Of a DNA stretch of 58,101 bases, positions 3,804 to 54,571 are shown piece by piece. A model generated the notes under the pieces. The model saw nothing but the letters and a program-made list of their open reading frames with translations, made no database searches and was not told the DNA's origin. How positions within the stretch are numbered: the stretch's first letter is position 1; every line of letters starts with the position of its first letter. Source of the stretch: an uncultured delta proteobacterium (GTDB lineage: Bacteria > Desulfobacterota > Binatia > UBA9968); the NCBI GenBank assembly GCA_963804165.1, contig CAWDPO010000018.1, positions 1 through 58,101 on the forward strand, given 5' to 3'. A program made the position numbers and the translations under genes.

Positions 3804-4011
3804 CAGCGAACTGCAATCGCCTCTGAAGTTTCCCGCCCCGTCGAGGCTTCCGCATCTGCTTGAACTGAATTAAATTCACCATGTAATCGAACTCGTGCCA
3901 CAGCAAACTGAAGCGGCGTACGGCACACTCTCAATGAGGGAGACGAATACCTGATCCGAATGGCAGCGATCGCTGTTTACCAGGATTCTATAATCAGTTA
4001 CCATTTGCCCT

Positions 4012-36034: not shown

Positions 36035-37041
36035 TCGAAAGGCGCTCAAGCGCCTCGACCGTCGCAATCGACATTCACGCCCATTTTGTTCCTGAAGAAT
36101 ATCTCCGCCTCATTGAGGCGGAAGGAGAACCCTACGGCGTGCGACTCCGCCCAGGTCCGAATGGGCCGTTGATTGCCGTGGGCCAAGTCGCAATCGGTCC
36201 CATCACTCCTCACTACCACGATCTAAACCTGCGGCTCAAAGCAATGGACAGACTGGGCGTAACAGTTCATGCGCTTTCACTCATGCCGCCGATGGTTTAC
36301 TGGGCGGACGGCGCTCTCGGCGGCAGGCTCGCGTGTCTCGTCAACGACGCGATGGCCGAAGCTAGCCAGGCGCATCCGGGCCGCTTCGTATTTCTTGCCA
36401 CGCTCCCGATGCAAGATCCTGAAGCTGCAGTCAACGAAGTGAATCGCGCGGTGACGGAGCTTGGCTGCCGAGGGATATACTTGGGCACAAACGTTCGGGG
36501 AAAGGAACTGACTGATCCATCATTTGTTCCGGTCTTCGAGCGCATACACACACTAAACATTCCGATTTTTCTCCATCCGCTCAATGTCATCGGAGCCCAG
36601 CGTCTCACGAATTATTACCTGCAGAACCTTCTAGGAAATCCGTTCGACACTGCCGTCGCTGCTGCCAACATAATTTTTAGCGGACTCCTTGATCGATTTC
36701 CGAACCTTCAGGTGTGCCTCCCGCACGCCGGTGGAGCTCTTCCCTATCTCATCGGTCGTCTCAACCACGGTTGGAAAGTGCGGCAGGAGTGCAAGGCTTT
36801 GAAGAAGCCGCCCTCGAGCTATCTCAGACGCTTTACCTACGACACGATCAGCCACGCTCCAGAGTCACTTGATTACCTCGTCAAACTGGTTGGCGCTGAC
36901 CGTGTGATGATGGGAAGCGACTACTGCTTTGACATGGGCTACGACCGCCCGGTTAAAGTCGTCACCGCTCTCAAGCTGAGTCGTGCGGATCAAGAAAAAA
37001 TTCTTAGCGGGAACGCCGCGCGCTTGCTTCGGCTCGGCTAG
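35995..37041 (+). CDS. Amidohydrolase_2 family protein (ACMSD-like)
   Basis: DIHAH, TLPMQDP, IFLHP, PHAGG, MGSDYCFDMG; true start may lie slightly downstream. Confidence 0.88.
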   Translation: MNAQSKIRNRKSKIERRSSASTVAIDIHAHFVPEEYLRLIEAEGEPYGVRLRPGPNGPLIAVGQVAIGPITPHYHDLNLRLKAMDRLGVTVHALSLMPPMVYWADGALGGRLACLVNDAMAEASQAHPGRFVFLATLPMQDPEAAVNEVNRAVTELGCRGIYLGTNVRGKELTDPSFVPVFERIHTLNIPIFLHPLNVIGAQRLTNYYLQNLLGNPFDTAVAAANIIFSGLLDRFPNLQVCLPHAGGALPYLIGRLNHGWKVRQECKALKKPPSSYLRRFTYDTISHAPESLDYLVKLVGADRVMMGSDYCFDMGYDRPVKVVTALKLSRADQEKILSGNAARLLRLG

Positions 37042-37316
37042 GCGTCCCCTCGCCTCTTTGCGAGCAGCACATTCCCGAATTGTTCGGAGGAAACAAAACG
37101 CGGTCGACTAGAAATTTTGGCGATCACGGAAATTTTCCTCAACAACATAGAATTGAAGCGTCTTGGACTAAACCGCTTCGCGGTGGATGAGAGGGCGCTG
37201 TTATTGAAGCATTTTCGTAATCCAGCCGCAGTTCCTTTATCATCGATCTTTTCTTTGACTCGGTGCCTGAGCGCAGTGATAGCCTCGGTGAATCAAATTC
37301 ACTGAAGGAGGCAATC

Positions 37317-38153
37317 ATGGGAATTTTACGTGATCGAATGATCGAGGAGATGAAGCTACGGAACTTCTCTACGGCAACGCAGGAGTCCTACGTCTACGCG
37401 GTAAGCAGACTGGCTAGATATCACAACAAATCACCGGATCAGCTCGGCAAGGAAGACATCCGAGCTTTTCTTGTGCATCTCACGATAGAGCGGAAGTTAT
37501 CGCCGAATAGTCTGACTGGATACTGTTCGGGGTTGCGGTTTTTCTACAACGAAACCCTGGGGTGGGATGAGACCAAGCTGTTCATTGCACCGAGAAAGAA
37601 ATCTTCACTGTTGCTCGAAGTATTCAGTCCCGACGAAGTCGTGCGATTGATTGGTGCCACCCGCGGACTCCAGCAACGTGTGTTACTGATGACCGCCTAT
37701 TCGGCAGGACTCCGAGTCAGTGAGTTGGTAAACCTCAAGATCACAGACATCGATGCGCAGCGCATGACGCTGCGGGTGAAGCAAGGCAAGGGCGGGAAGG
37801 ACCGCTATGCGATCCTGTCTCAGAACCTGCTTGTGGAACTGCGTCAGTACTGGAAACGCTACCGGCCTTCTCTCTGGCTTTTCCCGAACCGGGCCAAGAA
37901 CGGTCCATTAAGCCGAGGGGAGGCCTGGCACATCTTTCGCTCGGCGAAGAAAAGAGCAGGGCTTAAAAAGGGCCGTGGCATTCACAGCCTTCGTGCCTGC
38001 TTCGCCACCCATCTTCTGGAGGCCGGTGTGGACTTGCGCTCGATCCAGTTTTTGATGGGGCACACCTCTCTTCTTTCCACCCAGCGTTATCTTAGGCTAC
38101 GGCCACAGAACGTGGACTTTGCCGTGAGTCCGCTCGACCGTCTCCAGTTATAG
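37317..38153 (+). CDS. Tyrosine recombinase / site-specific integrase (SAM-like N-terminus)
   Basis: AAGGAGG RBS; AGLRVSE, KGGKDR, HSLR..FATH, LMGH, TQRY catalytic set is complete. Confidence 0.92.
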   Translation: MGILRDRMIEEMKLRNFSTATQESYVYAVSRLARYHNKSPDQLGKEDIRAFLVHLTIERKLSPNSLTGYCSGLRFFYNETLGWDETKLFIAPRKKSSLLLEVFSPDEVVRLIGATRGLQQRVLLMTAYSAGLRVSELVNLKITDIDAQRMTLRVKQGKGGKDRYAILSQNLLVELRQYWKRYRPSLWLFPNRAKNGPLSRGEAWHIFRSAKKRAGLKKGRGIHSLRACFATHLLEAGVDLRSIQFLMGHTSLLSTQRYLRLRPQNVDFAVSPLDRLQL

Positions 38154-38166
38154 ATGGCCTAAAGCC

Positions 38167-39360
38167 ATGCTGCCGGCCAGTCAGCGGCTGGCAGCGGCAA
38201 GACGCGGCGTTGAACTGGCCGATATCTTTCGTGCCCATGGCGAGTCCTTTCGCCGCGCTCATCCGTTGCCGGTTTCGCATCTCAAGATCATGCAGGCCGT
38301 AGAACGCTGCCGCACAGCGGCCCTGGGAGGCCACCTCGAGGAGTGTGACTCCTGGGCTATGAGCGCCCCGCCTATAACTCCTGCCGCAATCGCCACTGCC
38401 CCAAATGCCAATCACTGGCCAAGGTAAAGTGGCTGGATAAACAAAAGTCCGAACTGTTGCCGGTGGGATACTTCCATCTGGTATTCACTTTGCCGCACGA
38501 ACTCAACGCTCTGATACTGACCAACAAAAAGATTCTGCTAAGTCATCTCTTTAAAACCGCGGGTGAAACGCTCGTTGATTTTGGCCGAACTCGTCTGGGC
38601 GGACAAATAGGTTTGATCACGGTGCTGCACACCTGGGAGCAAACTCTGTTAGATCATTTTCATCTCCACTGTCTGGTCCCTGCTGGAGCTCTGTCGTTCG
38701 ATCAAAAGCACTGGCGTCCTGCCCGTCAAAACTTTCTGTTCCCAGTTAAAGCCCTGAGCCTCGTTTTCCGTGGTAAGTTTCTCGACTTACTCAAAAAAGC
38801 TTTCGCTCGAAACAAGCTCCTCTTTGTCGGTCAAACCGCTTCCCTGGCTGATTCTGTAGCGTTCAACCTTCTGATCAACGCGTTACGAAAAAAAACCATG
38901 GATCGTCTATGCCAAAAAACCTTTCGGTTCTCCCGTCCATGTGCTGGACTACCTCGGCCGTTACATCCACCGCGTGGCGCTGTCCAATGATCGGATTGTT
39001 TCAGCCTACAACGGAGCCGTCACCTTTAGTTATCGGGACCGAAAAAATCACGACCGAAAAAAGACCATGACCCTCGATGCCCACGAATTCATCCGGCGCT
39101 TCTTGCTCCACGTGATCCCCAAGGGCTTTGTGCGGGTTCGTCACGCGGGCGTTTTGGCCAACCGATCCAAAGGCCTGCTGTCCAAGTGCCGTCAACTCCT
39201 AGACCTCAATCCCGCTGTGCCCAAGCTCGCGCAAAAATCAGTTCACGAGCTGATGCTTGAACTCACCGGCATCGATATTACTCGATGTCCTCTGTGCCAA
39301 AACGGAACGCTGGTCTTGTTTGTCGCGCCGCCCGTCCTCGCAGCATGGGATTCTTCGTGA
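38167..39360 (+). CDS. IS91-family (Y2 HUH) transposase, two frameshifts (~38355, ~38890)
   Basis: CRTAALGG, NSCRNRHCPKC zinc motif, HLVFTLP, HFHLHCLV, YLGRY, EFIRRFLLHV.PKGF. Confidence 0.88.
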
Positions 39361-39612
39361 TGATCGCTCAACGAACCAACACCCGAGTGCGTGCCCGGTT
39401 CTCTTCTAGAGCCAACGCATCGGTGCGCCTGGTTTCATCGTTTCTCTCTTCTTGGCTCGTTCTCACTTCGGAGGTGATAGCCAGTTGAGCTCACAAGTCA
39501 ACTTGAATGAGGCCTGCTTGTGACACGATCACAACCACAGCAATGTTTGGTCGGCGCGCTGCCTTCGTTCCAATCCCCATAGGCGACCGTCACTGCTTCA
39601 CCCAACGCTTTA

Positions 39613-39705
39613 ATCCAACGGGTTTTATCCTGAATGCGTCCACGTCCAACGGTACTCATCCAATCGCTCTGCCCTCGCATTCAGGTTAAAACCTATCCGT
39701 TCAGT
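39613..39705 (+). other. attC-like palindromic site
   Basis: ATCCAAC (RYYYAAC), arms GGTTTTATCCTGAATGCG / CGCATTCAGGTTAAAACC (17/18), then GTTCAGT. Confidence 0.6.
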
Positions 39706-39789
39706 TCAATCCTACGGGTCCGCGAGGACTTCTTATTTGACAAATCCGTTCGTTCGGCGGGATAAATAACGCTCGAATCGAGGTGCGGA

Positions 39790-40784
39790 ATGAAGAAAGC
39801 TGCGGGGCCGTCAATCCTGTGTGCGGTGATGCTGCTCGCCGTTGCGGTGATAGCCGACGCACAGCAGCCGAAGAAGGTCCCTCGGATAGGGCATCTGTCG
39901 CAGTTCGACGTAGCTGGTGAGTCCAGCCGTTCCGAGGCAATTCGGCTCGCTCTGCGCGACCTTGGCTACATAGATGGACAGAACATCGCCTTCGAGTACC
40001 GATATGCGGAAGGAAAGGCCGATCGCCTCCCAGAGCTTGCAGCCGAGCTGGTGCGTCTCAAGGTTGATATTATCGTAGCAGCAGGAGCGGACACGCTGGT
40101 CCGGGCGGCCAAGAATGCGACCAAGACGATTCCCATCGTTATGTCTGGCCAAGGGATCGATCCTATCGAGGCAGGGCTGGTTGAAAGCCTTGCCCGTCCC
40201 GGCGGCAACATCACCGGCCTTACAAACCTTACCGGAGAACTGGGCGGTAAGCGGCTGGAGCTGCTCAAAGAAGCCGTTCCCAAAGTTGCCCGAGTCGCGG
40301 CTCTCTACGATCGGGCCGCTCTGGGCAGTTTACGTCAGCTAAAAGAGGATCTCCCAGTTTCGGCGCGTGCGCTGGGGTTGACTATTCAGCTTTGGGAGGT
40401 ACGAGATGCGAACGGTTTCGAGAGTGTATTCGCCGCGCTGACTAAAGAGCGGCCGGATGGACTCTATGTGCTCGGGGGCACGCTACTGCGTGCTAACCAA
40501 AAACGGATTGTGGACTTTACGTTAAAGAGCCGGCTTCCGTCGATGTACTTCACCAAAGAATTCGTAGATGCCGGGGGGCTCATGTCCTACGGGGCGGACC
40601 GCGCGGACAGTTACCGGCGCGTTGCATATTACGTGGACAGAATTTTGAAGGGAGCCAAGCCCGCTGATTTACCGGGGAGCGGCCCACAAAGTTCGAGTTA
40701 GTGATAAATTTAAAGACGGCGAAGCAGATCGGCCTAACGATTCCTCAGAGAGTGCTCGGGCGGGCGGACAAGGTAATTCGATAG
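39790..40784 (+). CDS. ABC substrate-binding protein, PF04392 type (paralog 2, frameshift near 40675)
   Basis: Same motifs as paralog 1; tail [15 protein letters not shown]...ADKVIR* is in a shifted frame. Confidence 0.88.
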
Positions 40785-40829
40785 GCACAGGCGGTAGGCA
40801 ACACTTGGGAGAGAAAGACATGAGGCGGA

Positions 40830-41162
40830 TCAGGCATAATGTCCTTTGGCGTTCCCGTTTTTGGTTGTAAGTATTATTGCTTTGGCTTTCTGTGCCACCG
40901 TTTGAAAAGGGCCCATACCACCGCGCCCAATAGCGGCTTTACTCGAATACGCATATTCAGGATGATGATCGTCGATGAATCTTGATTCTTTCTCAGCGAG
41001 CCGTGTGACTTCGGTCAGGTGCTCGACATCCTTAAGTCTTTGTGCACACTGTAAAGCGACCAGGAGTACACAGTGGGCTATGTCGTACTCGCCGTCAGCA
41101 AACGTGTCGCGGTTCATTTCCAAGGAACTTTGATAAATCTCCCTAATCCGGTGCTCGTTCAT
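40830..41162 (-). CDS. Hypothetical helical protein
   Basis: AGGAG RBS, 110-aa ORF. Confidence 0.6.
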   Translation of the reverse strand: MNEHRIREIYQSSLEMNRDTFADGEYDIAHCVLLVALQCAQRLKDVEHLTEVTRLAEKESRFIDDHHPEYAYSSKAAIGRGGMGPFQTVAQKAKAIILTTKNGNAKGHYA

Positions 41163-42279
41163 AGCAAACTCTCCTAAACATCGATTTCGCATCGATGTTT
41201 ACTTATCCGCTAAGCGCGGATCTATGATTTGATCAGAGGCTAATCCAGCTGGCACACTCACTACAGACCAATCCGCCAAAGTCGGAAATTTTGACGGCTA
41301 CGTCAGAACGGCGCAGATAACATCAGGATTGGATCATCATCAACAACCCCGAGGAACCATAGAACCGGCAAATTTATAACTGCCGTGGCCCACAAAGCTG
41401 CCAGCACGCCGGTGGCTATGATGATCCTGTTGTACATACCTTGAGGCGATCTAGTTATCCCGTCCAGTTCTGCATTCGCAGAAGCCCCATTCGTCAGGCA
41501 GAGAACCGCAAGTGCCACAGGCAAACGCGATCAGATCCTCATAAGTTCTTCGATGCTGTAGAGTCTCGCGGAGCACCGTGGCAACGAGCTGAACCGATCG
41601 ATCACTACTCGGTTTTGGCCATTGTGGCATCTCGCACCTCTTTACGAGCCTGGCGGAGTCGGCATATCCAAGAGACCTAGGCTCATCTGCCAAAGACACC
41701 TAAATGGCAGTGAATATGCCGACTCCATAATTTTTTAATACTGAGTGCCGGGTGCTTTACCAAAGCAAATCCAGTTCCCACCCGGAATTTCAGTGATTTT
41801 TGTTTTTCACGGGCTTTTTCTATCTGCCAATTCCCGATAATCGAAGGATAAGCCTGTAGTAAAAACACTGACATCCATAGGTGCCAGATAAGCTGCGGCG
41901 AAAGAGAACACGACATTGACGATGCGACCGAGCGCATCGCGCATTCACATTCAAACTTTTTCATATTGCAATATTCGAAAGCACTCGCTTTTTTCAGGTC
42001 GCCGCTCGCTTCCTAAAATGTAGTAGTGACGCCTCGCCTCTATCTTTTTGCAGGAAATTGCCGAATGATCGATTAGGATTTCGCTTTGCGTAATAGAGCT
42101 CTCGCCTCAAGCTGCACATTTTTGGCCTACCTCTGCGTCGGGACAAATATCTTTGGTTTTCGCGGCCTCTCACACGCTTTTTCGAAACCTTAAGCGTCTG
42201 GCACATCATATGCTCTGCGCTAACTCTGTGCTTGTGGTTTCGGCGCAGTTGGTAGTTGATAGTAGGCCGGTTTTTTTCC

Positions 42280-42579
42280 ATGAAACTCCGCGATCACCGG
42301 TCAATGAGCTACTATGGACAGCGCAGCTGGCCACCGTTATGGACGCGCATTTCTGGAGCGAGCGCTACACCACTAACCGGTGAATTCGGCATTCTGATAG
42401 ACGCGCGTCTGTCCACGGTTGATGATAATCGCTGTTTTCTCTCCATGGACTATGGCGTAACGAGATATGTAACGTGTCTGTGGCTTGACGATAGCGCATT
42501 TTGCCGCGGTCTCGTTGATCTCTTGAAAAAACATTCTGGCGAGCCGATCAGTCAAATCGCCGAGCTAGATGTTCCGTAA
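42280..42579 (+). CDS. Small hypothetical protein
   Basis: MKLRDH..M...G..SWPP.W...IAELD pattern, 99 aa. Confidence 0.6.
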   Translation: MKLRDHRSMSYYGQRSWPPLWTRISGASATPLTGEFGILIDARLSTVDDNRCFLSMDYGVTRYVTCLWLDDSAFCRGLVDLLKKHSGEPISQIAELDVP

Positions 42580-42667
42580 AATTTCTTAAAGTAGCGGTCG
42601 TCTTTAATGGCAAAGTGCAACGCATTGCAGCTCTTTAGACTGCACAAAGCCGAGTTAGCCATGAAGT

Positions 42668-42835
42668 TCACAGTATACGCCGGGCGATGATCACCACCAC
42701 ATAGGCCGCGGCGAAAGAGAAAACCACATTGACGAACCGACCCAGCGGACCGAGCAGGCGGGCAAGAAAGAACGTGACCAACCAAGCGACTATCAGGTAG
42801 AGCGTGAATTTGAGCCAGTACGGCATCGCCCGCAT
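42668..42835 (-). CDS. 55-aa two-TM membrane microprotein (not in ORF track)
   Basis: MRAMPYWLKFTLYLIVAWLVTFFLARLLGPLGRFVNVVFSFAAAYVVVIIARRIL*; a degenerate paralogous segment LGRIVNVVFSFAAAY lies near 41888-41935. Confidence 0.55.
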   Translation of the reverse strand: MRAMPYWLKFTLYLIVAWLVTFFLARLLGPLGRFVNVVFSFAAAYVVVIIARRIL

Positions 42836-43311
42836 TTATTCTCGACTATTCAGTTTTGCAAGCTATTACCAGAGCCCGACCGATTCTTGATGACTGAGTT
42901 AATAACCGAAGACCGTGTCCCACACATCAATCCGCTTTTTTGAAACTTCCAGGCCGTAGTTTTCGGCTTCCGCCCGCATGGAAAACTCTGTAAGCGTAAA
43001 TATGTGATGACTCATTCCCTACTGTGCGGATCGCCATCGTCCTGGGTATCGTCGTCAGCCATAATCCCATAGACAAATGCCACGACGACTAAAACGAGAA
43101 AGCTAATCAATAGCGCTGCCGCGTAAAAAGTCACGTAAGCTCCGCCAACCGAGAGCTGGGAAAGGTCTGGTACGAGGAGATTCTGTAGCGAAGTTGCGGC
43201 TCCTTTGCTCCAGCGAAAGGACCAATAGAGCATGCACTGTGCCGTCATGCTCCATAAAACTTTGGAGTGATTGTGTCAGTGTCCGGGAGTCGCACACGCG
43301 TAATCGAGCGT

Positions 43312-43392
43312 CAACTTTGCCTGCTAAAACGCAGCCCAAGTGTAATCGGGTTAGAGTGTCGATTTCTCATTGCAAAAAAACGGGAGTGTTGT
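43312..43392 (+). repeat. ~80-bp direct repeat, copy 1
   Basis: Identical 25-bp core TGTAATCGGGTTAGAGTGTCGATTT plus TTGCAAAAAAA.GGGAG, shared with 45749-45829. Confidence 0.75.
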
Positions 43393-43490
43393 TGGGGCGC
43401 TGCGGGATAGGAACACGCGGGCCGAGTAGTTTTCGAAGGTGGGCTATGTTACGATCACTCGCTTTACCAAAGCAACCAGGAGGAAGTAGT

Positions 43491-43760
43491 ATGACACCCA
43501 CTGCATGGGATTTTCGTAACAAACTGACCGTTATTCTGAACACGGCGAAACATAGTGGCAAGCCTTACGTGGATGTAGAATCGGGTAATCTACACAAAGA
43601 GCTGGGAGGTGACTCAAACTCCCATCACAGGCTGCCTATTTTTCATGAAGTCATGACCAAGATGATGCGTCCCGGTGATTCAATTTTAAAGGAAGCTCGC
43701 AACACGGACGGCGCAACGATGCTGGTTCGTTACGTTTTCAATGCCAAGCTGACAACCTGA
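43491..43760 (+). CDS. Small hypothetical protein
   Basis: AGGAGG RBS; 89 aa MTPTAWDFRNKL...GNLHKELGG...MRPGD. Confidence 0.65.
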   Translation: MTPTAWDFRNKLTVILNTAKHSGKPYVDVESGNLHKELGGDSNSHHRLPIFHEVMTKMMRPGDSILKEARNTDGATMLVRYVFNAKLTT

Positions 43761-44272
43761 GAAAACGACCGGCCAGATACAATCCACTCTAAGAGACGTG
43801 GCAGTTCGATACCTCGCTAATATAATTCTCACATCTGTGATTCGCTTCGCTATCGTCGTGTAGCCGGTCGGGAGCAGACGACAACCGTGACTTTGCGGCA
43901 TTGTTGCCGCTGTCGAAGAGGTAGAAGCTGGCAAGTGTCATCCGCGCGGAAAGTGTCCCCAGTGCGAAGACAACTTGGCCGTTATCAAGCGAATCATTTT
44001 ATAATGACCGTCCGCTTCCTTCGTCGTAATCTTGACTTCATTATCGCCTGACGCGTCGGCTCCACGGCTTCGGCTGATTCTGCGGTAACGATCTTTGCGT
44101 TGTCGCGTACAGATTGAGATTCGTCGCAAACTTTCTTGCTCTGCTTCGAGATCAATTTCTGATCCTCATTCATCGCAGGATCCTCCCTGTTCAGGCTTGC
44201 AAAACAAATCCAGAATACCGTCAGACTTTTGATATGCACCCCTCACACATCCCATGTGAGCGGCAATATTCA

Positions 44273-45526
44273 TCACAGTTGCTCCCTGATCGGAAATTCG
44301 AAAAATTCAATGAATCGCTCGACAATACTTCGTGACCGCCACTGTTCGTAAGTTATTTCCTGGGAATGCTTCAAATCCTCTTGGAAGATTTGTTCGAGCC
44401 GATGAGCGAAACCGGTATCGTAGACCGTAAGATTGATTTCCTGGTTTAAGGCGAAAGATCGATTATCGAAGTTCGTACTTCCGATGGTTGACCAGACCCC
44501 GTCGATCACTATCGTCTTAGCGTGCATGAGAGAGACTTTGTACTCGTAAACCTGAATACCACCGAGAAGAAGAGAGCCGTAGTGGCTGCGGCTTGCTGTG
44601 TAAGTGAGATGACTGTCTGACTCGCCTGGTAAAAGTACGCTGACCTTTACACCGCGCTTGGCCGCTTTCACCAGAGCTTCGGTCATCACCTTGTCAGGGA
44701 TGAAGTAGGGATTGGTGATGAGAATCGATTTCTTAGCCGAATTGATCGAGAGCAGGAAGAGCATGTAATTTTGAAAGCTGCCACCGATGGGCGAACTCTT
44801 GACGATTTGTGCTTGCAGATTCCCGGTTGGCTCAAGGCGTGGGAAATAGCCGTCGCCACCGATGGCAATGCCGGTGGTTTCCAGCCAGCTTTCGGCGAAG
44901 GCGGCCTGCAGGAATCTCACCACTGGACCCTCAATTCGTGCGTTCGTATCGCGCCAATGTTCGGGCTTCCGACCATTGCCCGTCCAAGCTTCACTTATTC
45001 CGTACCCACCGGTAAATCCGATTCGACCATCGATCACCAATACGCGCCTGTGATTTCGATAATTGTACCGCAACAATTTCCAGGGAAAGATAATTCCCTC
45101 GGCGTCAACTCGGCGGAAGTATTCCACATGGCAACCCGCGTCCTTCATAATCGCGATGATCTCGGAAGGCACTTTACCCGATCCGTGACTATCTAGAAGA
45201 ATATCTGCCTTGACACCGGCTCGGCAGCGTTCGGAAAAAGCCTGGGCTAGCTCGCGAGCGATAGAACCGTCTTCATAGAGATACTGAGCGAATGTGATCG
45301 TGGATTTCGCTTTTCCAATGTCTCGCAGCATCACCGGAAAAGTCTCATCGCCGTTGAGTAAAACTTCGATCCGATTGCCGCTGATAATCGGCGCGTCAGT
45401 ATGAGCTTCAATGGTAGGAAAAAACGTCGCTTCGCCGAGTGTGATCTCAGGAATTTGCTTTACGGCTAAAACCTGTGTGCAACCCAAACACGCAAGAAGG
45501 GTAAAGAGCCAATATAATCGTTTCAT
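44273..45526 (-). CDS. cls: Phospholipase D family cardiolipin synthase-like protein
   Basis: LLNGDETFP, NHRRVLVIDG..GFTGG, WRDT, NPYFIP, HAKTIVIDG..STIGSTNFD.RSF.LN.E. Confidence 0.88.
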   Translation of the reverse strand: MKRLYWLFTLLACLGCTQVLAVKQIPEITLGEATFFPTIEAHTDAPIISGNRIEVLLNGDETFPVMLRDIGKAKSTITFAQYLYEDGSIARELAQAFSERCRAGVKADILLDSHGSGKVPSEIIAIMKDAGCHVEYFRRVDAEGIIFPWKLLRYNYRNHRRVLVIDGRIGFTGGYGISEAWTGNGRKPEHWRDTNARIEGPVVRFLQAAFAESWLETTGIAIGGDGYFPRLEPTGNLQAQIVKSSPIGGSFQNYMLFLLSINSAKKSILITNPYFIPDKVMTEALVKAAKRGVKVSVLLPGESDSHLTYTASRSHYGSLLLGGIQVYEYKVSLMHAKTIVIDGVWSTIGSTNFDNRSFALNQEINLTVYDTGFAHRLEQIFQEDLKHSQEITYEQWRSRSIVERFIEFFEFPIREQL

Positions 45527-45748
45527 CGGTTTGAAATCGGTTATGACGGTCGAGACTTCGCGACCATAGCGTTCTCCTAGTGACTTGGAGCCGGGGCAGG
45601 AATCAAGGTGTGGTATCCGGTTGCGGTTCCCTGCCCCGGCGACTGCAACCTTGAGCAAGGGCCGTACCCTAATTTTTGAACAGACGGTTGGTAATTTATA
45701 AAGGAATAAGATCCACCTGTGGGAATTTGATGCTCTTTGGCTGAGCGG

Positions 45749-45829
45749 CAACTTCGCCTGTTAAAGAGCAACGCCGATGTAATCGGGTTAGAGTGTCGAT
45801 TTATCTTTGCAAAAAAAGGGGAGCGTTGT
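45749..45829 (+). repeat. ~80-bp direct repeat, copy 2
   Basis: See 43312-43392. Confidence 0.75.
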
Positions 45830-46433
45830 CATGTTGAGGCGGGTCGATTGTTACTGCTGTTGGCTTGGTCGAAAGTGTTCTCCTTTTGTCGTTTGGATTT
45901 GATGGTCTTGAGCGGCGAGGATTTTTCACAACATGACAAAATTCCCCTCATTCGAAGAATCGTTAACATTGGTACAGGCCTTGCTCCAAGCTTTGGCTTA
46001 TCGATTCATGTTCTGAAAAAGTGGACAGTAGGGAGAGCGAAAATGAAGTCCATCGATGTAAATCTACATAAACCCAGTTACTGGCAGGTGGTATTTTTGC
46101 AGAGCAAAGTAAACGGCGCGACTTACAACGGTGAAGCTCTTCCACGGCGAAGGTGGGATTGGCCGAAAAAATACGTACCTGCAGCGCCGCTTGCGACCGG
46201 ATACGTATCTAGGTGCAGAAGCCTCAAAATTCAATTAACAACCAGCATCTCGCACGCCATTCACGGACGGATGAAGCAGGTTGGACGCTGGCATTGCCAG
46301 TAGAAAAGGCTAAGCCACGAATTCGTTACACGATTAAGCATCGGAAAGGCCGCGAAACAGATCGATTAGAGAACGAGGATATTGGAATGATTTGGGCGCG
46401 GCACTATCCTAAACGGACTGAGAGCGCATCGTC

Positions 46434-46490
46434 GAATTCTCCTACGACTAAATCTTGTGAGATTCGACTGACGCGTCGTTTAGTTCAATC
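46434..46490 (+). repeat. Repeated recombination-site-like element, copy A (outer left arm missing)
   Basis: GAATTCTCCTACGAC...GTGAGATTCGACTGACGCGTCGTTTAGTTCAATC. Confidence 0.75.
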
Positions 46491-46597
46491 TCAGGCTAAA
46501 TCGGTCTTCGCGTTCGCCGAATCCCTATCGCCTTCCTTCCTAAATCTCAGTTTCCTCTATTACCGTTTCCCGTGATACATAACGAATGATGTGTGCA

Positions 46598-47596
46598 ATG
46601 AGGAAAGCTGCCGTCTTATCGATCCTGTTTGTAGTGGTGCTGCTTGCTGTTGCAGTCATAGCCGACGCGCAGCAGCCGAAGAAAGTTCCTCGGATAGGGT
46701 ATCTAGTGTCGGGCGATGCAGCTACTGAGTCCACTCGTGCCGAGGGAATTCGGCTGGGTCTGCGCGAGCTTGGCTACATCGAAGGCCAGAACATCGCTAT
46801 TGAGTACCGATATGCGGAGGGAAAAAACGATCGGCATCCTAAGCTTGCGGCCGAGCTAGTGCGTCTCAAGGTCGATCTCATCGTGGTAGCAGGAGGGGTC
46901 GGGACGATCCGGGTGCTCATGAATGCGACCAAGACGATTCCCATCGTTATGGCGGGCGAAGGGGTCGATCCTGTCAAGGCAGGCCTAATTGAAAGCCTTG
47001 CCCGTCCCGGCGGCAACGTCACCGGCCCTACAACCCTTTCCAGAGAACTAGGCGGAAAGCGGCTGGAGCTGCTCAAAGAAGCCGTTCCCAAACTTGCCCA
47101 TGTCGCGGTTCTCTACGATCCAACGAGTCAGGCCGGTGTACTCCAGGTGAAAGAGGTTCTTCCAGTCGCGGCGCGCGCGCTGAAGTTGACTCTTCGGTCT
47201 TGGGAGGTACGAGATGCAGACGGTTTCGACAAGGTATTCGCCGCGCTGAGTAAGCAGCGCCCGGATGGCCTCTATGTGCCCGCCTCGGGCCCGCTAATGC
47301 GTGCTAACCAGAAACGGATCGTCGCCTTTGCGTTAAAGAGCCGGCTACCGTCGATATATTCCTACAGAGAATCTGTAGATGCCGGCGGGCTTATGTATTA
47401 CGGCGCGGACTTCGCGAACAGCTACCGGCGTGTAGCCGTCTACGTGGACAAGATCCTCAAGGGAGCCAAGCCTGCCGATCTGCCGGTGGAACAGCCGACG
47501 AAGTTCGAGTTGGTGATCAATCTGAAGACGGCGAAGCAGATCGGCGTGACCATTCCGCCGAATGTGCTGGCGAGAGCGGATAAAGTGATTAAATAA
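46598..47596 (+). CDS. ABC substrate-binding protein, PF04392 type (paralog 3)
   Basis: Intact; same family motifs. Confidence 0.92.
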   Translation: MRKAAVLSILFVVVLLAVAVIADAQQPKKVPRIGYLVSGDAATESTRAEGIRLGLRELGYIEGQNIAIEYRYAEGKNDRHPKLAAELVRLKVDLIVVAGGVGTIRVLMNATKTIPIVMAGEGVDPVKAGLIESLARPGGNVTGPTTLSRELGGKRLELLKEAVPKLAHVAVLYDPTSQAGVLQVKEVLPVAARALKLTLRSWEVRDADGFDKVFAALSKQRPDGLYVPASGPLMRANQKRIVAFALKSRLPSIYSYRESVDAGGLMYYGADFANSYRRVAVYVDKILKGAKPADLPVEQPTKFELVINLKTAKQIGVTIPPNVLARADKVIK

Positions 47597-47613
47597 ACAT
47601 GCGACGATGCCAT

Positions 47614-47653
47614 GATTGAACTGAATTCTCCAACAATCCAATAGTGCGTGAGA
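47614..47653 (+). repeat. Repeated site, copy B (left part only)
   Basis: GATTGAACTGAATTCTCCAACAATCC...GTGAGA, 17 bp after the SBP stop. Confidence 0.7.
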
Positions 47654-47752
47654 CCGCATCGAAAAGGTGCAAGCACATCATGAAGGTAGGCCCATCCCGG
47701 TGCCTACCCTTATCTGCCAGTGCCACGGCTTGTCTCGACGTTCGATCGGCGA

Positions 47753-48630
47753 CTAGGGGCCGCAGATTGCCGGGAAGGGAGTCGGTGGAAACTCGCCCGG
47801 AAATGCCGCCGGGAGACTTTCACCGATGAACTCGACTTTGACCGTCTTACCTTTCAGCTCTTCGATCAAAACGAGGCCGGCCGAGTTCCCCTGTGCATCG
47901 AAGCAGTAGAACTTGTGCTCTATCTCCCCAGGTGCAAGTGGCGTCCACTCTTTAGTCTTCAGGCACCGATTGAATTCGCCGATTGCGATCGACACCGAAG
48001 CGTTCACCCTCAGTACCGCAGCCATGTCCTCGGCGACATCTTCGGCGAGCTCTTGCCGGTATCGGAGCCCGGGGCGCGGACGGGCTAGCATGATGATCCC
48101 AGGTTCCGCCGCGGGCGTAGGAGCCCCTCCGGCCAGCCAGGAACCTCGCTGCTGCACTCCAAGGTTTCGGGGTCCAGTGCCCGGGTCGCTTCGCCGAAAT
48201 ACCAGATGTTGCCGAAGATGTCCTGCGCGTAATAGTCCTCGGTATCTTCCGTCAGTGTTGCCGTGGCCAAATTACAGGACCCGTCATCACTCACCTCGGT
48301 GACCCACTCCTGGTCCCGCACCACCCGAGTCTGCACCCCTAGCACTAACTTGGTGTTCGTAGTGACCGTCACCTTGTTAAAGCTGCACTCGTCCTCGGTT
48401 TGCGCGAAGTAGACGAAGGTGGCGCCGACTGGAAGCGGCCAGAATGGGTTGTTGATCACGGGAGAGAGTGGAAAATTTCCCGCGTCGAAGGGAAGCTTCA
48501 CCAATCGGCCACTCGCGGTGCCTGGAGCTAGAGCCACGACAGCAAAGCTCAGCAACATTAGCATTATTGGCACAAGCCCGATGAGGTTAGTCCGTGTTTT
48601 CTCTTGATTACGTGGTGACAAAAAATACAT
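47753..48630 (-). CDS. Secreted hypothetical protein (frameshift near 48140)
   Basis: Signal peptide; INNPFWPL, DYYAQD..GNIWYFGE, then SWLAG..AEPGIIM...YRQE...AED, EWTPL.PG..EHKFY. Confidence 0.75.
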
Positions 48631-48882
48631 GGCTTTATCTCCTTCCCTGTTACGTTAAACGAAACACTACGAACGCTTATTCTGTTGAAAGCATGACGTT
48701 TGATCCTAGTGAACCTCCTGGTTCGTTGCAATGACGAAGATTACGGGAAGATGACCTGAAGATTACAAATCGGTAAGCTTGGGAAGGCTTGAACGAGGGG
48801 ACTTACACAAGAGAGTAGCTCAAGCGCCTGTCAAGATGGCCGCCTGTTGTCATCCGCGTTTTGGTAGCAATCACGAGGTTAC

Positions 48883-48950
48883 GATTGAACTGATTTCTCC
48901 TACGATACAATTCTGCAGGAGATCGAACTGACGCGTCGTTCAGTTCAATC
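48883..48950 (+). repeat. Repeated site, copy C (complete, 68 bp)
   Basis: GATTGAACTGA...GATCGAACTGA-CGCGTCGT-TCAGTTCAATC. Confidence 0.8.
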
Positions 48951-49065
48951 CTGAGCTGAATTTAGCCTCTTTTTCCTCGACAAATCCGGTTTTCCTTCCG
49001 TCCGTAAATATTACTTTTCTCAGCTTCCATGTTCGTGATAAGTCTGCTCACGAACGAGGCGAGCA

Positions 49066-50049
49066 ATGAACAAAGCTGGTTGGTCATCGATCTTGGTTGC
49101 AACGTCAGTGCTTTTTTTTGGCGTCGCTGCCGAGGCGCAGCAGCCGGGGAAAGTCCCCCGGATTGGATACCTAACTGCTGCCTCCCCTTCCACTAACGCC
49201 GCCCGCACCGAGGCCTTCCGGCAGGGCCTGCGCGAGCTTGGGTACGTAGAGGGGAAAAACATTGTGATTGAGTGGCGATATGCAGAGGGAAAGTTTGATC
49301 GGCTGCCCGCGCTCGCAACTGAACTAGTGCGTCTCAAGGTTGACGTCATCGTCTCGGGTGGTCCGCAATCAACGCGACCCACCAAGGAAGCAACTTCTAC
49401 GATTCCCATCGTTATGGCGCAGGATACCGATCCTGTCGGCAATGGGTTCGTGGCCAGCCTGGCCGGCCGGGTAGTAACATCACGGGATTGTCCAACCTCT
49501 CCTCAGAGTTAAGCGGGAAACGACTGGAGCTTCTGAAGGAGACTGTTCCTAGACTCTCCCGCGTGGCTGTCCTCGGGAATTTGACCGAACCAGGCAACGA
49601 ACAAGTGTTACGAGAAATGGAACTGCCACTGAAGCGTTCAAGGTGCAGCTTCAATCCCTAGACATATAGGTCGCAAGAAATTGAGAGCGCATTACCGAGC
49701 CGCGAGCAAAGGACGTGCTGACGCAGTCCTCGTCGTCCTGAGTCCAATCCTAAATTCCTCATCGAACACAGGTTGTAGACCTCGCGTTAAAGAATCAATC
49801 GCCCGCCATTTATGCCACACGAATTTGTCGAAAACGGAAGGACTTATGAGCTACGGCCCGAATTTTAGCGACTTGTACCGGCGCGCTGCTACGTACGTGG
49901 ACAAGATTTTGAAAGGTGCCAAGCCCGCAGATCTTCCGGTCGAGCAGCCGAAGAAGTTCGAATTTGTCGTCAATTTAAAAACAGCGAAGCAGATCGGTCT
50001 CACGATTCCGCCGAATGTTTTGGCGCGGGCGGACAAGGTGATCAAATGA
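49066..50049 (+). pseudogene. ABC substrate-binding protein, PF04392 type (paralog 4, multiple frameshifts)
   Basis: Family motifs at both ends; several indels between 49460 and 49840. Confidence 0.85.
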
Positions 50050-50062
50050 TCGGCGATGCTAA

Positions 50063-50128
50063 GATTGAATTGAATTCTCCGACGACTCGATCCTGTGAGA
50101 TTTGTCCGTTGCGTTGTTCAGTTCAATC
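50063..50128 (+). repeat. Repeated site, copy D (66 bp)
   Basis: GATTGAATTGAATTCTCCGACGAC...GTGAGA...GCGTTGTTCAGTTCAATC, 13 bp after the SBP stop. Confidence 0.8.
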
Positions 50129-50321
50129 CCACAAAGGAATAATGAACTTCTTTCCTTTTTTCATGTACAAAAGCCACATCTTAAGCCGCCTGGAGCAGAG
50201 GTCAAAACTATCCGCGTAGTGCTGTAATCCCTTTTCAAGGCTATAGTTTTTCTGAAGGCTGTCCAATATTAGACAGCAATCCGTCACCCGTCCATTTATC
50301 GTCAGGCCCAAAGGAGTTCAT

Positions 50322-51889
50322 ATGAAAAACAGATCCGTGTTCTTTGCTTGTTTGATCGTTCTCGCGCTAACGCTGCCCTCTCTAGCGCAGGAAGATAAGC
50401 TCGGCAAGGTGAGCTTCCCGACCTCTTGCGATCCCAAGGTGCAGGCCCAGTTCGAGCGCGGCGTGGCCATGCTGCACTCTTTTTGGTACAACGCGGGCGA
50501 AAAGATCTTTAGCGACGTGCTGGCGCAGGACCCGTCGTGCGCCATCGCGACGTGGGGTATCGCAGACGCTTTTAATGTCCAATCCACTCGGCGACCGGTT
50601 CTTCGCCCTAGGGTGCGGCGCAGGCACAAGCAGCGATTGACCAGGGCCGCAAAATTGGTGCTAAGACCCAGCGCGAGCGCGACTACATCGAAGCGGTCGC
50701 CGCCTACTACGAGGATTGGACCAATCGCTATGAAAGCGACCGCCAAAAAGTCCCGGGCCAAGGCCTATGAGGCACTTGCCGCCCGTTACCCAGATGACGA
50801 CGAGCACAAATCTTTTACGCGCTTTATCTAGCCGGCACTCAGTCACAGGCTGAGCAGACTTTTGCAACCTATCTAAAGTCCGCCGCAATCTTGGAAAAAC
50901 AATTCACTAAATACCCTGACCACCCAGGCGTGGCGCACTATTTGATCCATAGCTACGACGCTCCGCCCATCGCGCAAAAAGGTCTGCCGGCAGCTCGACG
51001 TTACGCCAGTATTCACCCGCGGCGCCGCACGCCCTGCAATGCCGTCGCACATATTTACCCGGGTCGGGGCGTGGGCGGATTCGGCGGCGACCAACCGGCG
51101 CTCGGCGGAGGCCGCCAAGAAGGGCAACGATAAGGACGAGCAAATGCATGCCCTGGACTATATGGCCTATGCGTACCTGCAGCTCGCACGCGACAATGAC
51201 GCGCGCCTCGTTATGGAGGAAGCTGCCCAGGTATCCGGCTTCAATTCTTTCCCCCGGGGCCTGACGTGTTCGCGGCGATTCCTGCGCGCTATGCGATTGA
51301 GCGCGGCGACTGGAGTGGAGCGATGAAGCTGCAGCCAATCGCCAACGATCTCCATTACACCAAGCGTTGACCCGCTTTGCCCGCGCTTTGGTGCGGCTCG
51401 TAGTGGCGACTTGTGTCAGCCGAAACGGAAGTCGGACATCTTGCCCGGCTGCGGGACGCCTTAAAAGCCAGCGAAAAACGCATACTGGGTGACTGAAGTG
51501 GAGATAAGCCGGCTCGCGGCCAGTGCTTGGACAGCTCTCGCATTGGGAAAAAAGATGAGGCCGTCAAACTTATGCGCAGCGCGGCGGACATGGAAGACAA
51601 GAACGAAAAACATATCGTGACCCCGGGACGGATCGTTCCGCTGCGAGAGCTATTGGGGCAAATGCTGCTGGAACTCAAGCGGCCTGCCGAGGCGCTCAAA
51701 GAGTTCGAGGCGTCGCAGATCCGCGAGCCAAACCGTTTTCGTGGATTTGCCGGTGCCGCGCAGGCGGCGGCGCAAAGCGGAAACTCCGCCAAGGCCAAGC
51801 AGCACTATATCCGGCTCGTTGAACTGGTCGGCAAAGGCGGGCCGCGACCGGAACTCGCGCAGGCAAAGACATTCCTAGCACAGCGATGA
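50322..51889 (+). pseudogene. Secreted TPR-like helical protein, multiple frameshifts
   Basis: LGKVSFPTSC, LHSFWY, PDHPGVAHYLIHSYD, MPSHIFTR.G.W, HALDYM.YAYLQ, RELLG, PNRF spread over several ORF pieces. Confidence 0.8.
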
Positions 51890-51930
51890 GTCGCACTACC
51901 TGAGCGTGCGAGCTTGGGAAATGGAGTCGA

Positions 51931-52422
51931 ATGTTTTCGCGGCGGCGAGTGATTGTCACGCTTGCCGCCGCATTCGGGCTTGGCACGGGCTCGCCGTGCT
52001 TTTCGGACCCGGCGGAAACTACTCCTGAAGTTTCGGCGCAGGACCCTGATTACGTTACCGGCAGGAAAGCCCTTGAGGCAAAAAACTGGCCCTCCGCTAT
52101 TAGGTCATTTTCGTCGGCCGAAGAGCGCAACCCCCGAAACGCTGACATCCAGAATTACCTCGGATACTCTTACCGCAAATCAGGAAAGCTCGATCTCGCA
52201 TTCAAGCACTATAATCAAGCTCTCGCGCTAAATCCTCGGCACCGGGGTGCGCATGAATATATCGGGGAGGCTTACCTCATCAAAGGTGACCTAAAGAGCG
52301 CGCAGAAACACCTCGGTTCGCTGCGCGAGATCTGTTCGCTGCCGTGCGAAGAACTCACGAATCTTGAGCGCGAGATCGCGAAGCACATCAAGAAACCAGC
52401 CGCGAGCCGTTCACGCCGATAA
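51931..52422 (+). CDS. Secreted tetratricopeptide repeat protein
   Basis: NADIQNYLGYSYRK, ALALNPRHRGAHEYIGEAYL, C-x3-CEE. Confidence 0.85.
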   Translation: MFSRRRVIVTLAAAFGLGTGSPCFSDPAETTPEVSAQDPDYVTGRKALEAKNWPSAIRSFSSAEERNPRNADIQNYLGYSYRKSGKLDLAFKHYNQALALNPRHRGAHEYIGEAYLIKGDLKSAQKHLGSLREICSLPCEELTNLEREIAKHIKKPAASRSRR

Positions 52423-53399: not shown

Positions 53400-54571
53400 G
53401 CCCTTCAGTAATGTCGTCTAATATCGAAAAGCAGCAAGACCGACAATGGTAGAGGAGGAAACAGATTGAAGGAGCAGACAACGTTTGCGAGTTTAGCGTG
53501 GGCGGGAAAGAAAAAGCAGACCAAGCGAGAGAAGTTTTTGTCTGAGATGGATCAAGTGGTGCCGTGGGAGAAATTGCTGGCGTTGATCGAAGCGCACTAT
53601 CCCAAAGCCGGCAGTGGACGGCGACCGATGCCGTTGGAACGGATGCTACGGATATACTTTGTGCAGCAGTGGTACGGGTTGTCCGATCCCGGGATGGAAG
53701 AAGCGTTGTACGACATCGAGTCGGTGCGGCGATTTGCCGGGATAGAGTTGGGGGAAGAAGAAATTCCCGATGAGACCACGATTTTAAACTTTCGCCACTT
53801 ACTGGAAAAGCACCAGTTAACCGAGAAGCTGTTGGAAGAGGTCAACGGGTATTTGAGCGAGAAAAGGCTTTTGCTCAGACAAGGCACGATCGTAGACGCC
53901 ACGCTGATCGGTGCGCCGTCCTCGACCAAGAACAAGGACAAGAAACGCGACGGGGAGATGAGTTCGACCAAGAAGGGCAACAACTACCACTTCGGCATGA
54001 AGGTGCACACGGGAACGGACAGTCAGAGCGGTTTGGTGCACACGGTCAAAGTGACCACGGCCAGTGTGCATGACAAGCAGGAGATGGAAGCGCTCCTTCA
54101 TGGAGAAGAGCAAGCGGTGTTTGCCGACAAGGGTTACTTCAGCGACCAGGATAAGCGCTCAGCGAGAAAGACGGGACTATTCTGGGGCGTGTTGGACAAG
54201 GCCAAGAGCAAAAAGAGCTTGAGCCATAAGCAGCGGCGCAGAAACAGAAAACTGTCCAGTATACGGGCCAAGGTGGAGCATCCGTTTCGGGTGGTCAAGC
54301 GCCAGTTCGGCTACATCAAGACCCGGTATCGGGGATTGAAGAAAAACGCGGCACAGATCTACACGCTGTTTGCGCTGGCCAATCTGTATCGAGTGCGCCG
54401 TGCTTTGTTGGCGTAGTCCGATGGGGAGGAGCTTGGGCCGTCCACAAACGCATTGAGTGGCCAAGAAATCGAGGCAAACCCCATCCGATGTAATCACCGA
54501 GCCGCTTAGTCAACATGAAACAGTTTTAAATAATCGCCCCCTTCCAAATAACGTAGTTATTCAGAGGTTCC
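53385..54571 (+). mobile_element. IS5 family insertion sequence
   Basis: TIRs GGAATCTCTGAACAA / TTATTCAGAGGTTCC (13/15); TTAA duplicated at 53381-53384 and 54572-54575. Confidence 0.93.
53466..54416 (+). CDS. IS5 family DDE transposase, intact
   Basis: PDETTILNFRH, VDATLI.AP.STKN, FGMK.H, ADKGY, RAKVEHPF, RYRGL.KN. Confidence 0.95.
   Translation: MKEQTTFASLAWAGKKKQTKREKFLSEMDQVVPWEKLLALIEAHYPKAGSGRRPMPLERMLRIYFVQQWYGLSDPGMEEALYDIESVRRFAGIELGEEEIPDETTILNFRHLLEKHQLTEKLLEEVNGYLSEKRLLLRQGTIVDATLIGAPSSTKNKDKKRDGEMSSTKKGNNYHFGMKVHTGTDSQSGLVHTVKVTTASVHDKQEMEALLHGEEQAVFADKGYFSDQDKRSARKTGLFWGVLDKAKSKKSLSHKQRRRNRKLSSIRAKVEHPFRVVKRQFGYIKTRYRGLKKNAAQIYTLFALANLYRVRRALLA

Follow-up and report, generated by a model that had tools for sequence, protein, structure and literature searches.

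What separates the gene-sized units of the window, a 58,101-bp stretch that forms the entire contig C18 of an uncultured delta proteobacterium of the Binatia (genome G000; 7.5 Mb in 46 contigs, 81% complete)? The units are bounded by an imperfect palindromic repeat of about 68 bp, and a preliminary description of the sequence had read them as a possible non-canonical cassette array. Our analysis bears out the clustering of the copies, their common orientation and the presence of boundaries at the site, whereas no recombination was demonstrated and no cognate recombinase was identified. Quite possibly, the repeat is a lineage-specific hairpin-forming site that parts single-gene modules, a non-canonical relative of the integron attC site in arrays that resemble attC-site clusters without an integron integrase (CALINs), with no integrase adjacent. 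From sequence comparison we infer recombination, its crossover point and its enzyme: a tyrosine recombinase acting in trans would swap strands at the right arm's inner edge (GCGTCG|TTCAG) or close to it; the likeliest candidate is the integron integrase of congeners, and a gene together with its downstream site could then be excised, inserted and traded among arrays and species.

Throughout, C-numbers denote contigs, and G005, G006, G012, G014, G015, G018, G019, G023 and G044 are genomes of relatives. Searching G000 with an nhmmer profile made from 29 distinct full copies (match threshold E<0.01) yields 82 non-overlapping matches, namely 36 full, 21 left-only and 25 right-only copies. On the same contig, 52 of the 61 neighbour pairs lie less than 6 kb apart, with a typical spacing of 0.9-1.2 kb, and every one of these 52 is co-oriented; the arrays present at least two co-oriented sites within 4 kb that separate open reading frames (ORFs), the arrangement by which integrons and CALINs are recognised. 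These figures differ from the genome-wide, orientation-random scatter away from breakpoints that the preliminary description had named as speaking for something other than cassettes. Arrays are located on C5, C8, C12, C18, C21, C22, C23 and C43 and at several contig ends. Of the 36 full copies, 29 share the strand of their upstream gene, and likewise 29 that of their downstream gene. The intervals mostly hold single small genes of diverse content: substrate-binding protein (SBP) genes or their fragments, AurF-like, SnoaL/DUF4440, TENA/THI-4, methyltransferase, cupin, lipocalin-like, MBL-fold, GNAT and TIR-methyltransferase genes, response regulators, and many ORFs without a Pfam match.

The preliminary description had also seen in the repeat a possible device for amplifying the PF04392 SBP family, a suggestion that the genome does not support. 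Among the 113 SBP gene 3' ends that tblastn locates in G000, 16 are flagged as followed by the repeat (two more are visible, the copy being shortened or further from the stop), and the large SBP tandem arrays on C6, C16, C37 and C38 contain no repeat, having other simple intergenic repeats instead. The family itself is greatly expanded in G000, and the spacers of its dense tandem arrays carry periodic AAAATC/GATTTT and CAGTGGTCAGT repeats (in the window at 35015-35998 and 35998-36045).

Within the window, each of the five copies claimed earlier is present at its place, and a weak isolated copy is additional to them. Profile positions below refer to the nhmmer profile; CM denotes the covariance model of the repeat that was also used to scan the genomes of relatives.

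3857..3921, plus strand: weak isolated left-only copy (nhmmer E 2e-4)
37137..37162, plus strand: left remainder of copy A, with the inner part ...GAATTGAAGCGTC
39699..39716, plus strand: right end of copy A, comprising G, arm 3 TTCAGTTCAATC (39700-39711) and outer bases
46434..46496, plus strand: copy B, profile positions 18-82, most of arm 1 absent (nhmmer E 2e-13)
47607..47662, plus strand: left-only copy, profile positions 2-57 (nhmmer E 9e-8), with unrelated minus-strand ORFs coming next
48876..48956, plus strand: full copy C, core 48883-48950 (nhmmer E 5e-19; CM 85 bits)
50056..50132, plus strand: full copy D, core 50063-50128 (nhmmer E 1e-17), the last in the local array

The three SBP genes among these copies start 78, 95 and 115 nt past the arm, and two of their stops lie 17 and 13 nt ahead of the next left arm, in agreement with the earlier account:

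39790..40781, plus strand: PF04392 SBP gene (Pfam E 1.6e-35), frameshifted near its 3' end (tblastn locus in two pieces), with no repeat after it
46586..47596, plus strand: intact PF04392 SBP gene, forming one unit with its flanking partial repeats
49066..50049, plus strand: PF04392 SBP pseudogene in two ORFs, 49066-49512 and 49681-50049

The 'right part' at 39699 had been placed correctly, but rather than standing alone as a half, it forms the end of copy A, which is split by an IS91-family insertion described below and whose arm 1 (about 37119-37136) appears degenerate by eye. Allowing at most one mismatch, the window has 8 occurrences of the 12-mer TTCAGTTCAATC, where 0.36 would be expected, a count that none of 100 shuffles attains, and its exact form occurs 53 times in the 7.5-Mb genome against about 0.9 expected. 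Copy C has the reported layout, with arm 2 GATCGAACTGA (48921-48931), the 8-bp spacer CGCGTCGT and arm 3 TCAGTTCAATC (48940-48950), arms 2 and 3 being complementary at 10/11 positions, and a direct arm 1 located 38 bp upstream of arm 2.

Folded as single-stranded DNA, the repeat consists of an outer stem of 12-14 bp (GGATTGAAYTGAA / TTCAGTTCAATCC), a 5x5 internal loop (TTCTC / CGTCG), an inner stem of 4-6 bp and a variable loop of 20-35 nt. The outer stem, the 5x5 loop and the inner stem form on both strands in three of the four copies folded, with z-scores between -0.9 and -4.3 over all four; copy C reaches -12.4 kcal/mol on the top strand (z -2.9) and -15.2 kcal/mol on the bottom strand (z -4.2). 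Pair 32-72 is U-A in 43 and A-U in 12 of 80 distinct copies drawn from several genomes, and in 47 of them the column pair 31-73 is a mismatch rather than a bulge. Arm 2 is poorly conserved. In an alignment read by eye, the outer 7-mers ATTGAAC...GTTCAAT each match the integron core-site consensus RYYYAAC/GTTRRRY at 6/7 positions, with AAC/GTT kept, the inner 7-mers ACTGAAT...GTTCAGT match it at 5/7 and 6/7. At its inner edge, the right arm has the sequence G|TTCAG.

The passages of PMC8876359 that concern the core site give R'' RYYYAAC and R' GTTRRRY as its consensus and place the integron crossover between G and TT of GTTRRRY; those of PMC4889954 that concern attC lay out a plan of R-box, spacer, L-box and variable structure, describe CALINs, large ones included, and report attC sites to be more alike within than between integrons. 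The repeat resembles such sites in several respects. Both are imperfect palindromes of about 60-130 bp that are alike within a lineage, as are the repeats of Vibrio cholerae, and both occur in co-oriented arrays parting small genes, mostly one at a time, whose functions are diverse or unknown. The stem ends of the repeat can be read as the xxxxAAC...GTTxxxx of attC, and its fold may likewise run from stem through internal loop and stem to a variable loop. Both are targeted by specialised insertion sequences (ISs), and the genus that hosts the repeat has integron integrases.

The preliminary description had proposed looking for breakpoints at G|TT. They often fall in the repeat, and then mostly at or near the right arm that holds G|TT, while many lie elsewhere. 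Within G000, high-identity blocks start or stop in the repeat, with the conserved right part (positions 53-79) the commonest place. The block C12 70827-71830 is 97% identical to C20 5958-6957; it begins at position 53 of one repeat and ends at position 74 of its successor, and the upstream left halves and downstream flanks differ between the two loci. Likewise, C21 9954-11469 has a 99% identical counterpart on C23, with bounds at profile positions 65 and 74, and C5 21532-22722 has a 97% identical one on C8 that ends at position 78. Shared units in G018 behave similarly: its TENA unit, compared between the C11 and C13 arrays, is 96.6% identical and ends at positions 73-78, and a unit with a 150-aa ORF, compared between C13 and C6, is 98% identical and starts at positions 48-53. 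In the window, the unit comprising positions 18-82 of copy B, the SBP gene 46586-47596 and positions 2-57 of the left-only copy is 85% identical to G018:C6:5730-6884, with unrelated flanks; left of copy B, 45902-46435 is 94% identical to the repeat-free locus C35:38880-39414, and this homology stops exactly inside copy B. Beyond copy D, synteny with the repeat-free relative G019 restarts at 50310.

Units of the C21 array are found scattered in G044 and G018. A solo unit in G044 is 96% identical to its C21 counterpart and has repeat parts at its bounds in a different context, and, at 93% identity, the AurF-like and DUF4440 genes recur in G018 and G044, where they stand at loci without the repeat. 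There, the AurF-like homology stops within about 30 nt past the ORF at each end, and the DUF4440 homology begins 24 nt inside the ORF and stops 31 nt beyond the stop. Because these units are 93-96% identical, compared with 79-83% for flanking orthologues in the same genomes, their sequences suggest that single units were recently exchanged between species.

The repeat is conserved across the genus. By CM search, it is present in 16/24 congeners, in 3/5 genomes of a second family and in 0/11 of a third (this tally and the integrase tally below both take in the unpublished G005). Three co-oriented arrays are found in G018, their units being 0.6-1.3 kb long and similar in gene content. A scan with an exact pattern, one genome per species, returned 44 loci, of which 11 have no profile match and are chance matches; the titled records are mostly metagenome-assembled genomes labelled 'uncultured delta proteobacterium', 'Deltaproteobacteria' or 'Candidatus Binatia'. 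Some bins are labelled Acidobacteriota or Verrucomicrobiia, and spread across phyla was considered for them and rejected: since their flanks are 70-92% identical to G000, mis-binning is likelier. In the literature on Binatia and integrons, and in that on IS91, tyrosine recombinases and palindromic targets (the latter surveyed at listing level only), we found nothing in print on this repeat.

Integron integrases occur among the relatives. With the integron integrase model TIGR02249 (cut-off 265 bits), IntI is found above the cut-off in 9/41 relatives, at 299-471 bits, and its loci have the G+C content of the genus. Bona fide IntI genes scoring 445-471 bits are found in G006, G012, G014, G015, G018 and G023, and three further genomes have matches of 299-364 bits (loci L078-L087).

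Several observations weigh against a recombining, attC-like site. In G000, an 81%-complete assembly, IntI was not found, the best match being 105 bits from IS-borne recombinases that do not have the IntI-specific segment. The CM has no match at E<4 in 81 kb around the nine IntI loci of the relatives, where the sites are of the ordinary GTCTAAC...GTTAGAC attC-like type; the array is CALIN-like at most, because IntI was not found in G000 and no repeat lies near the relatives' IntI. In none of the genomes examined is an integrase near the repeat, and a tally within the two families having either shows that IntI presence does not track repeat presence. The repeat also differs from attC in its sequence family and in a paired stem of 12-14 bp rather than 7, so that the unpaired loop or spacer is displaced relative to attC; its inner stem is weak (paired in only 70%), it has many half sites, and its folds contain no extrahelical bases in the form of a consistent L-box bulge. 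Support from covariation is modest to weak, and kinship among the sequences inflates such tests: in the 80 copies, 80.3% of cells are paired compared with 79.3 +/- 0.4 after shuffling (a level reached by 12/500 shuffles); for covariation, the score is 0.141 compared with 0.129 (reached by 11/500). In a test of a circular cassette, pairing of the outer bases on the left side of a repeat with the right side of the upstream repeat or with that of their own copy reveals no difference (3.19 vs 3.21 of 6, with 2.37 for random pairing).

The units themselves add to these difficulties. Many homology boundaries fall at positions 18, 26 or 35 or outside repeats, 46/82 copies are partial, which is unexpected of a clean site-specific system, and three 32-bp minimal forms (arm 1, TTCTCC and arm 3) occur. 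The conserved 23-bp right part could be a focus of ordinary homologous recombination, and the units, in contrast to promoterless cassettes, appear to bring 5' regions of their own. The C43 array forms a 12-kb island; in G014, its flanking genes are separated by 1.4 kb that holds unrelated genes and no repeat, evidence of an island only and silent on mechanism. In the C5 array, the IS and the TENA unit (88-90%) alone have near relatives in other species. Circular junctions or excision products of the units were not seen; the search took in 20 public soil and sediment read runs, in which at most 0.22 of the sampled words were present, and the contigs of four runs. Joints from 47631/47632 to 48919/48928, seen in up to four runs, were considered as excision products and rejected: they belong to other repeat copies, because 16-28 other letters separate their sides.

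The main rival, which we consider unlikely, though a serious contender, holds that the repeat is a structural or regulatory palindrome, similar to repetitive extragenic palindromic (REP) sequences and bacterial interspersed mosaic elements (BIMEs), which, for example, stabilises mRNA 3' ends, insulates or binds a protein and is inherited with the gene units that it flanks. Arrays would then result from segmental duplication and island build-up, and mosaics from RecA-type recombination at the 23-bp right parts and from IS insertion, with no dedicated recombinase. The repeat is intergenic, co-oriented with genes, lies 2-50 nt past stops and precedes 12/29 downstream starts by about 94-126 nt. 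The conservation of its right flanks (5' regions) in classes, its many partial copies (46/82), the heterogeneous breakpoints and the failure to find a cognate recombinase point in the same direction. Like REP/BIME sequences and the REP doublets (REPINs) associated with REP-associated tyrosine transposases (RAYTs), it is a short multi-copy extragenic palindrome past stop codons and an IS hot spot, in a genome that has RAYT-like genes, and REP elements are known IS targets.

Unlike those elements, the repeat is clustered and strictly co-oriented, delimits gene-sized units and flanks no RAYT gene. About 85% of neighbour gaps are below 6 kb in a 7.5-Mb genome, in contrast to the 52 scattered hits of a dispersed 207-bp element, and most SBP genes have no repeat. 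A role in RNA also finds little in its favour: there is no Rfam match at the repeat (36000-52000, E<=1), RNAalifold predicts no pairs, and no promoter or terminator is called at the copies, nor is there enrichment (39600-50500; candidate -35/-10 elements after arm 3 fail the scan rule). G-T (G-U) and A-C cells number 128 and 126, so that the hairpin has no bias to the transcribed strand. Finally, single units identical at 93-96% between species, against about 80% for flanking genes, also speak against this rival.

The insertion that splits copy A raises the possibility of a different enzyme. It consists of the following features.

37163..39698, plus strand: IS91-family insertion of 2,536 bp, ending immediately 5' of GTTC in the right arm of copy A
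37263-38153: Xer-like tyrosine recombinase (PF00589 and PF13495)
38457-38990 and 38941-39360: frameshifted Y2 HUH transposase, with PF04986 in two frames

IS91 elements insert 5' of GTTC/CTTG without duplication of the target. The element in the window agrees with this family in its Y2 HUH transposase and in its junction, GCGTC^GTTCAG, which has no duplication, and its intact paralogues score 431 and 439 bits on the NCBIfam IS91 transposase model NF033538 (cut-off 125). Excising it in silico restores ...GAAGCGTC|GTTCAGTTCAATCC, an nhmmer match to positions 39-82 (E 4e-11), and when the two intact copies on C23 are taken out, repeats of full length result (E 6e-20 and 7e-23). Other copies of this subtype in G000 lie at C23:251687-254215, C23:259578-262106, C30:154971-157056 (at a contig end) and C24:174619 (a left end); 4/4 left and 4/4 right ends abut the arm TTCAGTTCAATC, in either arm of the palindrome. 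A second IS91 subtype, whose recombinase is 56-58% identical, has no tie to the repeat. The '37317 recombinase', named in the preliminary description as one to test on the site, belongs to the element inserted there and is not an integrase of the array; it is part of a parasite of the site, because the IS has its ends at the arm and the repeat is restored once the IS is taken away. The IS lies within one base of the putative G|TT crossover point, but its position is no independent evidence for that point, because the IS91 target rule predicts the same place.

Even so, the arms, with an 11-8-11 core and an accessory arm, could be bound by an Xer-like recombinase, either the host XerCD or one borne by the IS, in a cassette system independent of IntI, a scenario that we regard as improbable. 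An inverted-repeat core is made up of arm 2, the 8-bp spacer and arm 3, and about 13 of the 25 right-only copies start at positions 41-46, so the core occurs alone. All ends of the IS subtype lie at the arm, its recombinase scores 181 bits on the XerA/integron-integrase model (below the cut-off of 220), and full sites result when the IS is removed in silico. The same junction, by contrast, is of a known IS91 target type that the HUH transposase alone can explain, and close relatives of the IS recombinase (E<=1e-60) are present in 7/31 genus genomes, far fewer than carry the repeat. In G018, a recombinase pseudogene lies between a left part of the repeat and a right arm, but no close homologue of it is found elsewhere, the best being 44% identical. 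A dif-type site has 28 bp, in an 11-6-11 layout with a conserved XerD arm, whereas the repeat has an 11-8-11 core and, as also speaks against an Xer-type site, a poorly conserved arm 2. The pdif (XerC/XerD) modules of Acinetobacter plasmids are likewise gene modules bounded by short tyrosine-recombinase-type sites with inverted arms around a spacer; their sites are 11-6-11 and alternate in orientation, whereas the repeat has an 11-8-11 core plus a third arm and points in one direction throughout.

The G018 gene (L030:11884-12903) is a frameshifted tyrosine-recombinase gene and the second unit of its array, between a degenerate left part and a right arm. It was considered as the cognate enzyme and rejected, as it has no close homologue in the 31 genus genomes. 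Site-specific ISs on attC or REP sequences are known, namely the IS1111-attC group and the REP-targeting ISs of the IS110 family. The element described here resembles them in being confined to a repeated site at a single fixed position; it differs in belonging to the IS91 family (Y2 HUH transposase plus Xer-like recombinase) and in inserting 5' of GTTC or ATTC at the arm edge.

The copy number and the palindrome would also suit a non-autonomous mobile element, a miniature inverted-repeat transposable element (MITE) or a REPIN moved by a RAYT or another transposase and preferring these islands, which we hold to be very improbable. With 13-bp terminal inverted repeats, a length of 66-70 bp, about 80 copies and its 32-bp minimal forms, the repeat has the look of such an element, and G000 has 18 Y1_Tnp matches, of which C12 56011-56697 scores as a RAYT (87.5 bits; cut-off 80). 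Among the features of a MITE, however, namely inverted repeats, duplication and dispersed polymorphism, only the inverted repeats are found. No target-site duplication was seen, the flanks extending the palindrome instead of forming direct repeats; no empty-site polymorphism of the 68-bp element was found; the copies are clustered and co-oriented rather than dispersed; and their flanks are alignable among copies on both sides. As to the transposases, no arm match lies within 2 kb of 15 of the 18 Y1_Tnp genes, and inverted copies flank none of them.

The Y1_Tnp/RAYT-like genes occupy 18 loci in G000, and several are open frames of about 320 aa. A RAYT link was rejected on the absence of arm matches at 15/18 loci, the lack of flanking inverted copies at C12 56011-56697 and the clustered distribution. 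The 207-bp element (C12:48667-48873), which has terminal inverted repeats, constitutes a true dispersed MITE-like family; its BLAST hits are scattered in G000, none lies in the window, and one copy adjoins the right arm of a repeat.

The window is abundant in pseudogenes and mobile elements, and DDE (DUF772/DDE_Tnp_1) transposase genes at 33086-34333 and 53466-54416 flank the region. Between the SBP gene at 39790 and copy B lies a 5.6-kb stretch of unrelated small ORFs that includes a PLD-like protein (44273-45751, minus strand) with two HKD motifs and a signal-peptide-like N-terminus. Two paralogous 188-aa ORFs, 43194-43760 and 45737-46303, have no Pfam match, and each is preceded by the shared motif taatcgggttagagtgtcgattt. 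Upstream of the gene at 50322, the near-palindromic GTCCAATATTAGAC (50264-50281) stands in a conserved context of about 45 nt, tTTTTcaAaattGTCCAATATTAGACaGcAATC; allowing at most two mismatches, it occurs at 16 places in G000 upstream of genes, and also in G018 (L030, about 13060), and it is probably the operator or promoter of a regulon.

If an Xer-type system, served by XerCD or by the IS-borne recombinase, were true, the integron principle would have been invented a second time, independently, in an uncultured soil lineage. The IS91-family element, found at the arm edge only, is a clear-cut case of a rolling-circle IS whose insertion is targeted by structure or sequence, and it may serve as a marker for locating such sites. 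Should the attC-like reading hold and the site be recombined, this gene-rich, uncultured soil lineage would hold a large cassette platform, with about 80 sites in several arrays in G000 alone. Both the sequence and the stem geometry of the site are visibly unlike textbook attC, and the notion of an attC-like site would become wider. The arrays would then be a test case for integrases or other tyrosine recombinases that read folded DNA, and also for the birth of cassettes, given that sister species hold near-identical copies of several array genes at ordinary loci.

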